From Candidatus Parcubacteria bacterium (GTDB taxonomy: Bacteria > Patescibacteriota > Minisyncoccia > Sungbacterales > SURF-37), in contig QZJO01000013.1 of the NCBI GenBank assembly GCA_003599755.1, positions 27,729 through 91,728 of the forward strand: DNA of 64,000 nucleotides, given 5' to 3'. How positions within the stretch are numbered: the first letter of the stretch is position 1; each line of letters starts with the position of its first letter. The notes under the pieces were generated by a model. It had not been told where the DNA came from and made no database searches. It worked only from the letters and a program-made list of their open reading frames with translations. Made by a program: the position numbers and the translations under genes. Below, in pieces: positions 16,977-50,648 of the stretch.

Positions 16977-17696
16977 CTACTGACGTAAGGCGAATGGGTT
17001 AAAGTTTGTTCCCTCGTCGTAGGTATCAAGACCTTCCTTACGCTTGATAATCTTAATTACTCTTTGGGTGATCGGGAGGACAATTATTTCCCAGGTTGTG
17101 GCGAAGACAACGGTTGTAATTGTAAGGGGGATAATCTCTTCTGCAGTAAACCAGCCAGCGAAATAAAAAGCGGTAAAGAATGCAATGGTATTGTCCACTG
17201 TTTGTCCAAAAAGTGTGGATAGGACGAGGCGCACACCTATAAATCTTCCTTGCGTCCAAAGCTTCATTTTTGCGACGACATAGGAGTTTGTTAGTTCTCC
17301 GGCAAAAAATGCAACAATAAATCCTAGAGCAATGATTGGTGCGGCCCGGAAGATTAGATTAAATGCCTCGTTGTACTCGAAACTAGGATTGGGTACAAAA
17401 CTATAAATTGAAGTAAGTGTTGCCGAAAGGAGCATACAGGCAAAGCCGGTCCACACGATTTTTCTAGTAACTCGGTAGCCGTACACTTCGGTAAAAATGT
17501 CGGCAAAGATATATACGAATGGATATGCTATTGCTCCCACGGAAAAAACGAGGCTGCCAATGTAAAAGGTTTTAAGTGAAGTAAAGGTGCCGACAAGCAA
17601 AACCGTGACCCATAACATTCCAAAAACTCCTAGCCATTTGTGTGGTTGTGCCGCCGAAACAGCTGGGTCTGTGATGAGTTGTTTTTCTTGCTTCAT
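16977..17696 (-). CDS. Queuosine-precursor (YhhQ/DUF165, VUT family) transporter-like membrane protein; conspicuously low-GC gene
   Basis: 239-aa polytopic membrane protein (…YPFVYIFADIFTEVYGYR…LFGQTVDNTIAF…) typical of YhhQ. By eye the region is about 40-45% GC, against over 60% for its neighbours. Confidence 0.65.
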   Translation of the reverse strand: MKQEKQLITDPAVSAAQPHKWLGVFGMLWVTVLLVGTFTSLKTFYIGSLVFSVGAIAYPFVYIFADIFTEVYGYRVTRKIVWTGFACMLLSATLTSIYSFVPNPSFEYNEAFNLIFRAAPIIALGFIVAFFAGELTNSYVVAKMKLWTQGRFIGVRLVLSTLFGQTVDNTIAFFTAFYFAGWFTAEEIIPLTITTVVFATTWEIIVLPITQRVIKIIKRKEGLDTYDEGTNFNPFALRQ

Positions 17697-17850: not shown

Positions 17851-17934
17851 TGCCGCGGGAGAGAGTCGAACTCTCATGAGGTTGCCCTCGCTGGATTTTG
17901 AGTCCAGTGCGTCTGCCAGTTCCGCCACCGCGGC
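17851..17934 (-). tRNA. tRNA-Leu (anticodon CAA), type II with long variable arm, 84 nt, CCA not encoded
   Basis: Hand fold: acceptor GCCGCGG/CCGCGGC (perfect), D-arm GCGG-AACTGGCAG-ACGC, anticodon arm CTGGA-CTCAAAA-TCCAG, variable arm CGAGGGCAACCTCATG, T-arm GAGAG-TTCGACT-CTCTC, discriminator A. Confidence 0.8.
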
Positions 17935-19861: not shown

Positions 19862-20010
19862 GGTAGTCCTCCTTGTCAGGTTGGGGAAGAACTTCTCCTA
19901 TCCATGATACCGGCGTATATACTGCTCTGTTTTCAGGGTATCGCGCGGTACCGGAAGCGGCTGCGTAGGCACTGTCGCAAGGGCTGAAAATGCACTATGG
20001 TACAATTGAT

Positions 20011-20772
20011 ATGGCAACCGTCATCGCATTCTGTAATCAAAAAGGAGGTACGGGAAAGACCACGACGGCCGTGAATGTCGCAAGCTATCTTGTGGCGCTC
20101 GGCAAGCGGGTGCTTGTCGTGGATATCGATCCCCAGGCAAACGCGACTTCGGGCATCGGCGTGCAGGCGGGCGAGCGGCATCTGTACCATGGCCTCGTGC
20201 GGGATGCGCATCCGGATGAATTGATCCGCCATTCCGGCCTGATGAATCTCCATGTGTTGCCGGGGCATCCGGACTTGGCCGCCGCGACCGTGGAGCTCGT
20301 ACCGATGGAGAACCGCGAATACCGGCTGCGCGATCTCTTGCGCCGCGTCGGCCGCCGCTACGATTTTATTCTCATCGATCCGCCGCCGACGCTCGATCTT
20401 CTGACCATCAACGCGTTGACGGCGGCCGATCAGGTGATCATCCCGGTACAGTGCGAGTACTACGCGCTCGAGGGGCTGGCGCGCCTGATGCATACGATCA
20501 ATCTTGTCAATCAGAATTTGAAAATGAAAGTGCGGACCATGGGCGCATTGCTGACGATGTTTGATCGCACAAGCCGGCTGCACCGCGCGGTCGCGCGGGA
20601 CGTGCGCAAAAAGTTTCCCGGCTATGTATTTGATGCCGTTATCCCGAGGAACGTTAGCTTGGCCGAGGCGCCGAGCTTCGGCAAAACGATCCTCCAGTAC
20701 GATCCCTATTCGCACGGCGCGAAGGCCTACCGAAAATTGGCGCAGGAAATTGTTAAGATCGAAAAAGAATGA
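20011..20772 (+). CDS. parA: Chromosome-partitioning ATPase ParA/Soj
   Basis: MATVIAFCNQKGGTGKTTTAVNVASYLV (deviant Walker A). Start at ATG 20011. A TGgTACAAT extended -10 lies only 4 nt upstream, so the mRNA is possibly leaderless. Confidence 0.85.
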   Translation: MATVIAFCNQKGGTGKTTTAVNVASYLVALGKRVLVVDIDPQANATSGIGVQAGERHLYHGLVRDAHPDELIRHSGLMNLHVLPGHPDLAAATVELVPMENREYRLRDLLRRVGRRYDFILIDPPPTLDLLTINALTAADQVIIPVQCEYYALEGLARLMHTINLVNQNLKMKVRTMGALLTMFDRTSRLHRAVARDVRKKFPGYVFDAVIPRNVSLAEAPSFGKTILQYDPYSHGAKAYRKLAQEIVKIEKE

Positions 20773-21230
20773 AGCGCATTGCCATTATTTTTATAGTCGT
20801 CGCTGTAATTTTTGGCTTATTTCTTTACAGTAGGCGCGAAAAGGAAGTTTCCGGGCGCGTTGTTGCGTGCGAAACCGGAGAGCCGATTGCTGGAGCTACA
20901 GTTTCAGCGCATCAGCACGGATGGGGGCTCTCGAATGGCATGCCCGTCTGGGATAAAGAATATACGACAACTGCGGTAAGCAGTTCTGATGGTTCATTTT
21001 CGCTTGCTTGGCGGGTCGGTAATGCGGCGCAATTGCGGGCTAAGCATGATAACTATATCGTTGCTGAATGGTGGGCAAAAGATACGGAAACGGTTTCTTT
21101 GCCATTGCGCCCCGGAACCGATCCGTTCCCATTGGCGGTAACATATAATTGCAAACTCGTTTCTGAATGCATGGTATGTGAAATGATAAACGGTGTTGAA
21201 ACGTGTCATAATTCGTGTCTGCCTCAATGA
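20769..21230 (+). CDS. Small low-GC membrane-anchored protein with a carboxypeptidase-regulatory-like beta domain and a Cys-rich C-terminus; inserted between parA and parB
   Basis: N-terminal TM (IAIIFIVVAVIFGLFLY), a GRVVACETGEPIAGATVSA motif (CarbopepD_reg-like) and a C-terminal CKLVSECMVCEMINGVETCHNSC. About 47% GC by eye. Start overlaps the parA stop (ATGA) and the end overlaps the parB start. Confidence 0.5.
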   Translation: MKRIAIIFIVVAVIFGLFLYSRREKEVSGRVVACETGEPIAGATVSAHQHGWGLSNGMPVWDKEYTTTAVSSSDGSFSLAWRVGNAAQLRAKHDNYIVAEWWAKDTETVSLPLRPGTDPFPLAVTYNCKLVSECMVCEMINGVETCHNSCLPQ

Positions 21231-22327
21231 CCAACCCTCTCGGCAAAGGACTTGAATCGCTCATTCCGGGCAAGGCCACGCCGCCTCCGGAACCGGAGCC
21301 GTTGGACGTGCTACACGGCCAAAAAGAGCTCGACGAGCCGATGCATCGGTTCCACGACGGCGGTCCGATGCGCCAAGCTGCATCCGCGCCCGGATCGACG
21401 GGTACTGCAGCGCCGGTGAACGCGGCCGCTTCCACGCCCTTGCCGCCGCGAACGATCCAAGTCGATACGCCGGGTCGGATGATGTTTTCGGCGCAGCCCA
21501 TCCGTGGGGATAGTATTTTCTGGATTGAGATCACCAAGATCGAGCCGAATCCCTTTCAGCCGCGCCGCGTGTTCGACGCGGGCGAGTTGACCGCGCTTGC
21601 GCAATCCATCCGCGATCATGGCGTGCTGCAGCCGCTGTTGGTAACGAAGGTTACCAAGGATACGCCCAGCGGCGTGGACGTGCGCTATCAGTTGATCGCC
21701 GGCGAACGGCGCTGGCGCGCATCCAAGCTCGCGGGTTTGCGCACGGTGCCGGTGATCGTACGCGGAACCGATACGTCCGATCAGGCCAAGCTCGAGTTGG
21801 CGCTCATCGAAAACGTCCAGCGCGAGGACCTGAACGCGATCGAGCGGGCCAAGGCCTTCCAGCAATTGATCGATGAATTCCGCCTCGGGCACCAGGATAT
21901 CGCCAAGCGCATCGGCAAAAGCCGGGAGATGGTGACCAATACGCTCCGCCTTTTGCGCCTCCCTAAAGAAATGCAGGATGCGATTTCGGGGGGCGTAATC
22001 ACCGAAGGCCATGCCCGCGCGCTCTTGATGCTGGATCCGGAACCGGATAAGCAGCAGCAGTTATTCCGCGAAATGCAGCAAGGTCCGATGTCCGTGCGCG
22101 CGGCCGAGCTTGCGGCGCGGGCCTTGGGCGGCGCCAAAGTGCAAAAACGGAGCAAGCTGAAAAACACGCCCGTGGATCCGGATCTCCAGTCGCTGCGCGA
22201 GCGACTTGAAGAGCTGTTTGGAACCAAGGTATCGCTGATCCGGCGCGGCGAGCGCGGCCGGATCATCGTGGAATTTTATTCGGATGAAGAGTTGCAGGGG
22301 ATTATGGGACGGATCGTGAAGGAATAG
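21215..22327 (+). CDS. parB: Chromosome-partitioning protein ParB/Spo0J with a long Pro/Ala-rich N-terminal extension
   Basis: ParB box EIEPNPFQPRRVFD...LQPLLV...YQLIAGERRWRASKLAGLRTVPVIVR, and HTH region NTLRLLRLPKEMQDAI. The alternative start at 21227 is equally possible. Confidence 0.85.
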   Translation: MSASMTNPLGKGLESLIPGKATPPPEPEPLDVLHGQKELDEPMHRFHDGGPMRQAASAPGSTGTAAPVNAAASTPLPPRTIQVDTPGRMMFSAQPIRGDSIFWIEITKIEPNPFQPRRVFDAGELTALAQSIRDHGVLQPLLVTKVTKDTPSGVDVRYQLIAGERRWRASKLAGLRTVPVIVRGTDTSDQAKLELALIENVQREDLNAIERAKAFQQLIDEFRLGHQDIAKRIGKSREMVTNTLRLLRLPKEMQDAISGGVITEGHARALLMLDPEPDKQQQLFREMQQGPMSVRAAELAARALGGAKVQKRSKLKNTPVDPDLQSLRERLEELFGTKVSLIRRGERGRIIVEFYSDEELQGIMGRIVKE

Positions 22328-47725: not shown

Positions 47726-48193
47726 ATGCGCCGCAAACGCAATTTCGAACGCGATATCGCACCCGACCCGCGCTATGACAGCGTGTTGATCGCCAAGCTT
47801 GTTAATTCAGTCATGCAGAAAGGGAAAAAGTCCGTGGCGGAGTCGGTGATCTATGACGCGTTTGATCTGATCGCGAAAGAGACCGGCGAAGATCCATTGA
47901 TCGTATTCCAACGCGCGATGCAAAACGCGTCGCCGTTGCTGGAGATCAAGTCGCGGCGCATTGGCGGCGCGAACTACCAGGTGCCGCGCGAGGTGAATCC
48001 GAAGCGCCGCGTGGCGCTGGCATTGCGCTGGCTGATCGGCGCAGCGCGCGCCAAAACGGGCAAGCCCATGGCCGCGCGATTGGCCGAAGAAATCATGCTC
48101 GCGGCCAAAAACGAAGGCGCGGCGATCAAGCGCAAAGCCGATATGCATCGGATGGCAGAAGCCAACAAAGCATTTGCGCATTTTGCGTGGTAA
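47726..48193 (+). CDS. rpsG: 30S ribosomal protein S7
   Basis: MRRKRNFERDIAPDPRYDSVLIAKLVNSVMQKGKKSVAE…. Confidence 0.9.
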   Translation: MRRKRNFERDIAPDPRYDSVLIAKLVNSVMQKGKKSVAESVIYDAFDLIAKETGEDPLIVFQRAMQNASPLLEIKSRRIGGANYQVPREVNPKRRVALALRWLIGAARAKTGKPMAARLAEEIMLAAKNEGAAIKRKADMHRMAEANKAFAHFAW

Positions 48194-48202
48194 CTCTTCA
48201 GA

Positions 48203-48529
48203 ATGGATCTTGGGATTCGCTCGAAACATAAGATTAGGCTTGGGCTTATTATAAGTTCGCTGGTATTTGGTTTTTTATTTACCGCCTTCGCGGGAATCGT
48301 GCTGTATGCATACACACTTACTAGTGTGTTTTCCGGCGGAGAACTTATGTGCTACGGATTTTTTAGTGATGGAAGTCCATGCTCATATGTAGATATCGTA
48401 GTGCGAGGTGCAGGATTTCTCCTGGGTGGCTTCCGCGATGCGGAGTCATGGATCATACCTTTGGTTTCTGCTGGCATTTTCTATATCGCGGTAGATAATA
48501 TTTCCCGTCTGAAAGCACGCGCCGTATAG
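48203..48529 (+). CDS. Small low-GC membrane protein (108 aa, 2-3 TM) inserted between rpsG and fusA
   Basis: Exactly fills the rpsG-fusA spacer (ends 1 nt before the fusA ATG). About 45% GC by eye, against over 60% in flanking genes. TM segments [25 protein letters not shown] and [14 protein letters not shown]. Confidence 0.45.
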
Positions 48530-48530
48530 C

Positions 48531-50648
48531 ATGGCACGAGAATATCCACTCGAAAGAACAAGAAACATCGGGATCATCGCCCATATCGACGCCGGAAAAA
48601 CCACGGTTTCCGAGCGCATTTTGTTTTACACCGGGGTCTCGCACAAAATCGGCGAGGTGCACGAGGGCGACACGGTCATGGACTGGATGGAGCAGGAGCG
48701 GGAGCGGGGCATCACCATTACCGCGGCCGCGACCAATGCATTCTGGAAGCCGTCGTATCTTGCCGAAGCGCAGAAGACCAAAGACAACGAATACCGGATC
48801 AATCTCATCGATACCCCGGGCCACATCGATTTTACCGTCGAGGTGAAGCGCTCGCTCCGGGTGCTGGACGGCGCGGTCGTCGTGTTCGACGGCGTAGCCG
48901 GCGTCGAACCGCAATCCGAAACCAACTGGCGCTACGCGGATGATTACCGCGTGCCGCGCATCTGTTTCATCAATAAGCTCGATCGCACCGGCGCGTCGTT
49001 CGAAAAATCACTCGCTTCTATTTACGAACGGCTGACGCCCAACGCCGTGGCGCTCTCCATTCCGATCGGATCGGAAGCGGATTTCGAGGGCGTGATCGAT
49101 CTTCTGAACGAGCAAGCGGTCCGGTTCCTCGGCGAACGGGGCGAGCGGATCGAGCGAGGGCCGATTCCCGACGCATTGAAAGAAACCGCGGCCGAGTGGC
49201 GGGCCAAGATGGTGGAAAAGATTTCGGAGACCGACGACGCGCTGACCGAAAAATTCCTGAATGCCGAGGCGATCACGCCGGCTGAACTGAAGGTGGCGCT
49301 GCGCCAAGCGACTCTCGCGGCCAAGCTCGTGCCGGTGCTTGCCGGCTCGGCTTTGAAAAACAAAGGCGTGCAGCTCGTACTCGACGCGGTCGTGGATTAT
49401 CTGCCCTCGCCGCTCGACCTGCCGCCGGTCAAAGGCGTCAATCCCAAAACCGGCGCCGAAGAAGAGCGCGCGGCCAAGGATGACGCGCCGTTTGCGGCGC
49501 TTGCGTTCAAGCTGCAATCCGATCCGTTCGTCGGGCAGCTGACGTTCTTTCGCGTGTATTCGGGTACGCTCGCAGCCGGTTCGTACGTATTGAACACCAC
49601 GAAGGGTGAACAAGAGCGCGTGGGTCGGATTTTGCGATTGCACGCGAACCATCGCGAAGAATTGAAAGAGATCCAGGCCGGCAATATCGGCGCGATCGTT
49701 GGCCTCAAGATCACGCGTACCGGCGATACGCTGGCTGACCCCGACCATCCGATCGTGCTCGAACAGATCCAATTTCCCGAGCCGGTGGTGTCGCTGCGCA
49801 TCGAACCGAAAACCAAGGCCGACCAGGAAAAAATGGGCATCGCGTTGCGCCGATTGTCCGAAGAGGACCCGACGTTCCGCATCAAGGGCGATGTCGAGAC
49901 GGGCGAGACGATCATCTCGGGCATGGGCGAGCTGCACCTCGAGATCATCGTGGACCGGATGCGCCGGGAATTTTCCGTGGAAGCGAACGCCGGCCGCCCG
50001 CAGGTCGCGTACAAAGAAACCGTTAAAAAGGCGGCCGAAGCCGAAGGCAAGTACATCCGCCAGACCGGCGGCCGGGGACAATACGGCCATGTGCGGCTCC
50101 GCGTGACCCCGCAGGAACGAGGCAAGGGCTTTGAATTCGTCAATGAAATCAAGGGTGGCGTGATTCCTCAGGAATTCATCCCAGCCGTGGAAAAAGGCGT
50201 GCGCGAGGCGACTGATCGCGGGGTGCTCGCCGGCTATCCGGTCGTGGACTTGCAGGTGGCGCTCTACGACGGTTCATTCCATGACGTGGACTCGTCTGAA
50301 GCCGCGTTCAAAATCGCGGGTTCCATGGCATTCCAGGAAGGCGCACGCCGCGCGGGACTCGTACTCTTGGAGCCGATTATGCGCGTCGAAGTAGTCACGC
50401 CCGAGCAATTCCTCGGCGACGTGACCGGGGATCTGAACGCCAAGCGCGCGCGGATCCAGGCGATGAACGAGCGCGCGATGGGCGTCAAAGTCATCGAGGC
50501 CCAGGTGCCGCTTGCCGAGATGTTCGGCTACGCGACCACGCTTCGTTCGTTGACGCAGGGTCGGGCGTCATTTACGATGGAGTTCAGCCATTATGAGGAG
50601 GTCCCGTCGAACATCGCACAGACGATTGTCGCGGGGCGCACCGGGTAG
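48531..50648 (+). CDS. fusA: Elongation factor G
   Basis: [25 protein letters not shown]…DTPGHIDF…NKLDR. 705 aa. Confidence 0.95.

Follow-up and report, generated by a model that had tools for sequence, protein, structure and literature searches.

In one clade of Parcubacteria, the parA–parB junction holds a probable passenger gene for a putatively membrane-anchored beta-sandwich protein

Our results suggest that the 153-codon open reading frame (ORF) between parA and parB (positions 20769–21230, + strand, of the window, the whole 64-kb stretch of DNA that we analysed) is a lineage-specific passenger: a real gene for a membrane-anchored surface protein that profits from the expression of the par operon and stands outside the ParABS machine. 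We consider this reading likely. Few genes of bacteria are paired as stably as parA and parB. If our reading is right, genome-reduced Parcubacteria can accept foreign genes even at this junction and retain them; within a single clade, we find three states of the junction at one site. Our literature search found no description of a gene of this kind between parA and parB.

The course of events that we propose is as follows. A copy of a gene family would have become lodged in the parA–parB junction of one Sungbacteria-related clade of Parcubacteria. The ORF would be transcribed together with parA and parB and translated by ribosomes that leave parA, and the translation of parB would restart from ribosomes that terminate on the ORF. 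The product would act at the cell envelope in a binding or structural role, outside the cytoplasmic ParABS machine. The ORF would thus be a passenger that gained steady expression, and the junction a variable site in the clade.

The gene and its neighbours

The ORF follows parA, which encodes a soj-type ATPase (19990–20772, + strand; Pfam AAA_31 8.3e-61, CbiA 4.9e-26; an ATG at 20011 is a possible alternative start), and precedes parB (spo0J; 21227–22327, + strand; Pfam HTH_ParB 1.2e-31, ParB_N 6.1e-31, ParB_C 1.8e-08). The initial annotation had the ORF overlapping both the parA stop and the parB start, and both overlaps can be read directly as ATGA on the + strand. At the first (20769–20772), the ATG of the ORF (20769–20771) lies over the TGA of parA (20770–20772); at the second (21227–21230), the parB ATG at 21227 lies over the TGA of the ORF (21228–21230). 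We rejected a parB start at GTG 21215, given by a mechanical list of ORFs. The true start is the ATG at 21227, because it opens the conserved MTNPLGKGLE that is common to relatives.

The window belongs to a metagenome-assembled genome (MAG) of Candidatus Parcubacteria. Its ParB is identical to NCBI RJQ35972.1 from Candidatus Parcubacteria bacterium, and the nearest named relatives of this ParB are Sungbacteria. The protein consists of an N-terminal ParA-interaction motif (MTNPLGKGLE), a linker of about 90 aa, ParB_N, an HTH and a C-terminal dimerisation domain. In ParBs of the window's clade, the part between the LGKGLE motif and ParB_N is a Pro/Ala-rich extension of about 90 aa (window 21227–21520), and ParB_N begins near residue 99. 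topA lies 40 nt from parB. The 64-kb window contains no canonical parS (TGTTTCACGTGAAACA, up to 3 mismatches) anywhere, and no Rfam element was found near the parAB locus.

The ORF is a genuine gene. Its ortholog P0001, also 153 aa long and 64% identical, occupies this junction in three metagenome contigs, among them L001; the ATGA overlap with parA is kept there, and 3 nt separate the gene from parB. Between the window and L001, the ORF shows a dN of 0.25, a saturated dS of 1.6 and a dN/dS of 0.15. The corresponding values are 0.11, 1.43 and 0.077 for parB, and 0.018, 1.21 and 0.015 for the C-terminus of parA, whose last 125 aa are 97% identical to those of the L001 ortholog. The ORF is under purifying selection and evolves faster than parA and parB. 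An exhaustive profile (HMM) search of 1.84 billion representative proteins yielded 141 homologs with E<=1e-3, 57 of them with E<=1e-10, mostly 120–190 aa long and matched over their full length. A word-indexed search returned one match with the single sequence as query and five with the profile, and a metagenome scan with a closer subset of the family alignment returned 4 loci. There is no paralog in the window.

One could also argue that the ORF is spurious and simply occupies an expanded intergenic spacer: its composition is atypical, and the exact 153-aa protein is missing from a collection of 15 billion proteins that does hold the ParB and a 108-aa ORF of the same NCBI contig. The chance of this is negligible, since it is already refuted by the dN/dS of 0.15, the 141 homologs and a predicted structure with a pLDDT of 95. 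That the protein is missing while its neighbours are present rather suggests that the gene is unannotated, and it probably is so in the public record.

The initial annotation also proposed that the ORF is co-expressed with the segregation ATPase. Its placement fits this proposal. No terminator-like site lies on the + strand between parA and parB, and by inspection an evident Shine-Dalgarno sequence is missing ahead of both the ORF and parB. Together with the 4-nt ATGA overlaps, these features of the DNA suggest co-transcription of the three genes and coupled translation, so that the ORF is probably coupled translationally on both sides. The AT-rich tail of the ORF also contains a TG-extended promoter-like site (21183–21212, + strand; ATGATA, an 18-nt spacer, CATAAT) that ends 15 nt ahead of the parB ATG. 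Such sites are no more numerous there than shuffling leads one to expect, which puts this one at chance level.

A family of small beta-sandwich proteins

The domain layout of the initial annotation, an N-terminal anchor followed by a carboxypeptidase-regulatory-like beta-sandwich and a Cys-rich tail, agrees with both the AlphaFold (AF2) model and Pfam. The model, built from an input alignment of 36 family members, reaches a pLDDT of 95.4 and a pTM of 0.84. It predicts a signal-anchor helix at residues 2–21 (20772–20831, + strand), preceded only by M-K-R, and a seven-strand sandwich of the transthyretin/CarboxypepD_reg type at residues 25–115 (20841–21113, + strand). The tail (21150–21218, + strand) carries C128, C134, C137, C146 and C150 and is modelled as a short helix (131–134) and a beta-hairpin (135–140 / 143–148). 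The tail had been credited with six cysteines. It has five, and the sixth, C34, belongs to the sandwich.

The best Pfam match is PF13620 (CarboxypepD_reg) over residues 27–96 and profile positions 2–59 of 82, with an E-value of 3.8e-06 and a score of 27.6 bits that stays below the gathering score of 32.3 bits. The same model is found at E<=0.01 in 31 of the 36 family members, at best with 1.2e-08. Foldseek searches of PDB and BFVD returned generic transthyretin-like sandwiches only, including 9hfj (TMt 0.80), 3e8v (TMt 0.73) and 5aq0 (TMt 0.65–0.67), all with a probability of 1.00. These neighbours are CnaB pilin domains, regulatory domains of carboxypeptidases D/N, SusC N-terminal extensions (NTE) and phage tail or structural domains. 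Model and structural matches thus both point to a seven-strand transthyretin-like sandwich. NCBIfam, PADLOC and a sequence search of the PDB gave nothing meaningful for the ORF.

With its predicted seven-strand prealbumin-like sandwich, the protein resembles the clan of CarboxypepD_reg (PF13620) and CarbopepD_reg_2 (PF13715). Known structures of this type include the SusC N-terminal extension 9hfj, Bacteroides 3e8v, the TTL domain of carboxypeptidase D (5aq0) and the CnaB pilin domains 5fgs and 8bdw. They work in an extracellular or cell-surface context, as the ORF product probably does. Unlike them, it is a free-standing single domain with its own membrane anchor, and its family is distinguished by an added C-terminal helix and hairpin with 3–5 Cys and by a Cys in strand 1 that never varies. 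None of the curated models in Pfam or NCBIfam spans the whole protein, and our literature search found no description of the family. It is an uncurated family of 150–190-aa proteins that is scattered over diverse, mostly uncultured bacteria.

G29, C34, G75, C128, C134 and C150 are invariant among the 36 members, and W61 and Y96 are nearly so; all of these except the three tail cysteines are sandwich residues. Four cysteines (C34, C128, C134 and C150) are hence present in 36 of 36 proteins. Of the other two, C137 and C146, 8 members have both and the remaining 28 have neither, with no member having just one of them. Judging by the strand boundaries of the model, they would face each other across the hairpin (135–140/143–148), and the Cys-rich hairpin is probably stabilised by disulfides. 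An even number of conserved cysteines that are gained and lost in pairs is what one expects of a disulfide-bonded exported family.

Several observations bear on the topology. The N-terminal segment is strongly hydrophobic in 67 of the 81 small family members, and the mean net charge is +1.6 on its N flank and +0.7 on its C flank, in agreement with the positive-inside rule. In several homologs the segment ends in a lipobox-like motif (IVGC, IFGC, LCGC, LVGC). Predicted helix and family segments thus have the form of a signal anchor or a lipoprotein signal, and most of the structural neighbours are modules from the cell surface or from outside the cell. Because of the paired cysteines, the lipobox-bearing homologs, the charge bias and the surface-type relatives of the fold, we infer that the protein is probably of type II (N-in, C-out), with its folded domain outside the cytoplasm. 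Only about three residues (M-K-R) would then remain in the cytoplasm.

The family that we define here consists of small beta-sandwich proteins that are probably disulfide-bonded and tethered to the membrane. Parcubacteria-type contigs encode at least some of them, and surface proteins are of interest there for host attachment. The practical value of our analysis lies in an annotation fix, for a gene that the public protein collection seems to lack, and in a candidate family for curation.

History of the parA–parB junction

In all 20 distant genome loci that hold both genes, parA abuts parB, as it does in one close relative. This comparison bears out the initial annotation in calling the ORF an insertion relative to the usual adjacency. 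A neighbour-joining (NJ) tree of ParB divides the close relatives into two sister clades. Clade A consists of the window and L001-3 (ParB 84–86% identical to that of the window), and its junction holds the 153-aa ORF. In clade B, the basal L042 (ParB 65%) is a contig that begins inside a member of the ORF family ending 8 nt before parB. L026/27 (66%) have no insert, and parA and parB overlap there by 1 nt (TAATG). In L028-30 and L043/44 (64%), the junction is occupied by an unrelated GxxExxY/PDDEXK_3 gene.

The L042 fragment is the nearest non-self relative of both clade A proteins, and the window protein, P0001 and the fragment cluster in 123 of 200 NJ bootstraps. The best match of the fragment itself is another family member, P0125, at 53%. 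A single origin, in the common ancestor from which the window, L001 and L042 descend, appears most likely to us, and two independent gains of a family member at the junction are possible. The most parsimonious history would be one insertion in the common ancestor, a later loss and the re-use of the site by another element. The ORF predates the split between the window and L001, and probably also the deeper split from L042.

The three lineages with the ORF span about 35% ParB divergence. That the same site was kept over this distance is a point against the passenger reading, as it could reflect a functional link to segregation. It should also be noted that the adjacency to parA is visible for the window and L001-3 only, since the L042 contig starts within the ORF.

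The GxxExxY gene of the sister lineage matches TIGR04256 (1.6e-29). In L028 it lies at 2500–2999 between parA and parB, and it is found at the same place in L029, L030, L043 and L044. Only L029 has an intact copy (131 aa); those of the other four are split or truncated. A perfect 16-nt inverted repeat (CCTACGAATTACGAAT / ATTCGTAATTCGTAGG) and shorter copies mark its edges, and gene and repeats form a compact cassette. The cassette resembles the ORF in that it uses the same junction in close relatives and is likewise unrelated to partition. It differs in being set off by spacers of about 80 nt and 30 nt with no overlap to its neighbours and in being often split by frameshifts, whereas the ORF is intact, lacks repeats and overlaps its neighbours seamlessly. 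The repeat of the cassette was not found in the window.

All clade B relatives also carry, between parB and topA, a conserved gene for a 154-aa protein with several cysteines (L026 4164–4628, L028 4152–4616, L042 1373–1681). It is not present in the window and has no Pfam or NCBIfam match. We considered whether it might be a relocated copy of the ORF and rejected this, the sequences being unrelated.

Base composition and the question of recent transfer

The markedly AT-rich composition claimed for the ORF holds up on calculation. Its GC content is 47.8% (GC 0.478), against 57.6–61.6% in the flanks (parA 0.576, parB 0.616) and 0.598 in the window as a whole. The contrast at third codon positions (GC3) is 43.5% against 71–75%, that is, 0.435 in the ORF, 0.713 in parA and 0.749 in parB; the genes of the window have a mean GC3 of 0.664 (sd 0.093). 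Across the whole window, only 1.3% of all 462-nt windows are equally GC-poor. GC3 is low in each of three parts of the ORF (0.42, 0.48 and 0.33) and hence throughout the gene. The AT-rich string that the initial annotation quoted as its example is the transmembrane segment (GC 0.37), and to this extent the contrast was overstated. GC3 is also low in every ortholog, with 0.435 in the window and 0.506 and 0.492 in the other two, compared to 0.65–0.75 in the adjacent parB genes. Conservation with parAB across the lineage at a normal composition had been named as what would refute the initial annotation. We find the gene conserved with parAB in a part of the lineage, and its composition atypical in every ortholog.

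These values raise the question of whether the ORF is a recent horizontal transfer or a selfish mobile insertion from a low-GC donor that has not yet ameliorated. The low GC3 of the ORF relative to its flanks argues for such an origin. Most of the homolog-bearing contigs that we sampled are GC-poor (0.26–0.42), which fits a GC-poor donor, and the window holds other genes of low GC, one of them adjoining a tRNA gene. Other family members have the GC content of their GC-rich hosts, so the family as such has no intrinsic AT bias.

We nevertheless consider an origin of this kind unlikely, for the following reasons. First, neither terminal inverted or direct repeats nor a mobility gene were found around 20769–21230, and tblastn searches of plasmid and phage collections returned no homolog. 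The marks of a mobile cassette or IS-like element (terminal repeats, a target-site duplication or a mobility gene) are thus missing. Second, the gene is older than the split between the window and L001 (dS 1.2–1.6), and probably than the split from L042. Third, its dN/dS of 0.15 indicates selection at the level of the host. Taken together, the missing repeats, mobility gene and plasmid or phage homologs, the purifying selection and an age beyond a split with saturated dS argue against the selfish insertion that had been suggested. Finally, a rough two-state relaxation estimate of ours indicates that most of a purely historical GC3 deficit should have decayed by now. Since GC3 has stayed low in every ortholog despite the saturated dS between the window and L001, recent transfer alone is not a sufficient explanation.

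A factor specific to the gene is therefore likely to lie behind the low GC3. It may be that selection in favour of GC is weaker on this accessory gene, which evolves fast, or that selection acts on the coupled message. The passenger reading by itself leaves the low GC3 of all three orthologs unexplained.

Alternatively, the ORF could be kept at the junction mainly as a spacer for expression. A coupled frame that is AT-rich and full of rare codons could set how many ribosomes reach parB, and hence the ratio of ParA to ParB, with the protein being of secondary importance. Both junctions are apparently coupled, with no evident Shine-Dalgarno sequence ahead of the ORF or parB, and low GC3 is maintained in all orthologs. 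Moreover, ParB dosage is known to be critical, according to the introduction of a preprint (bioRxiv 10.64898/2026.07.07.737113). However, the protein itself is under purifying selection, with invariant Cys and Gly residues and a confidently predicted fold, and L026 manages with a direct 1-nt overlap of parA and parB. Hence, we regard this explanation as quite unlikely.

A role in chromosome partition?

The initial annotation also raised the possibility that the membrane protein tethers the partition complex. In this case, it would anchor ParA or the ParB–parS complex at the membrane. Such anchoring has precedents, as polar landmark proteins of other bacteria hold components of the partition system at the membrane. 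Examples are Vibrio HubP, Caulobacter PopZ and TipN, actinobacterial DivIVA and the bactofilin–PadC pair of Myxococcus, all of which have sizeable cytoplasmic domains that touch ParA or ParB. To our knowledge, ultra-small Parcubacteria lack the known polar landmark proteins. The ORF product shares with these anchors that it is a protein other than ParA and ParB; they are tied to partition, and the tie of the ORF is a genetic one only. HubP is in addition a single-pass membrane protein, as the ORF product probably is. Unlike the known anchors, the ORF product would have only about three residues in the cytoplasm, and its family shows no general linkage to parAB.

In favour of a tether, the ORF is encoded together with parA and parB and apparently translated along with them, and it has been retained at the junction in three lineages. 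Several findings oppose it. Only M-K-R precedes the anchor helix, and the folded domain lies most likely outside the cell, to judge from the pattern of cysteines, the lipobox-like motifs of some homologs and the bias in charge. With so short a cytoplasmic part, direct contact with ParA, ParB or DNA is unlikely. Homologs elsewhere have no parAB neighbours. At eight other family loci (L031-L036, L038 and L040), the surroundings are instead an acyltransferase with a holin-like gene, LemA/TPM genes, a conjugation/HipA region, prfA and rpmE, or an O-antigen-ligase-like gene. The co-occurrence with parAB across the taxa of a family that one would expect of an accessory ParABS component is therefore absent here. 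Furthermore, sister lineages live without the gene; it was lost in the L026 lineage, and in that of L028 its place is taken by an unrelated gene. We consider a tether very unlikely, and the passenger probably has no role in partition.

One could also argue that the ORF is kept inside parAB for a reason linked to segregation, which we think very unlikely. One route would be transertion: as the product is inserted into the membrane during its translation from a parA–ORF–parB transcript, par locus and nascent ParB would be held there. A second route would be dosage, with the output of ParB relative to that of ParA being set by the maintained AT-rich, slowly read and coupled frame. If either were true, the ORF would serve ultra-small Parcubacteria as a built-in regulator of chromosome partition. 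Only if its position affects the dosage or the localisation of ParB would our finding be of greater importance.

Other low-GC genes in the window

Two other genes of the window are conspicuous for their composition. The first (48203–48529, + strand; GC 0.453, GC3 0.413) encodes the 108-aa hypothetical protein RJQ35998.1, which has hydrophobic segments and is probably membrane-spanning. It lies between rpsG (47726–48193) and fusA (48531–50648), with spacers of 9 nt and 1 nt, and thus repeats the pattern of the ORF between parA and parB: a small AT-rich gene for a membrane protein within a conserved operon. The second is a Vut_1-family gene for a putative vitamin uptake transporter (16977–17696, − strand), with a GC content of 0.43 in a genome of 60% GC. 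A tRNA gene (17851–17934, − strand) is about 150 nt away, and the Vut_1-family gene looks like a tRNA-adjacent foreign gene.
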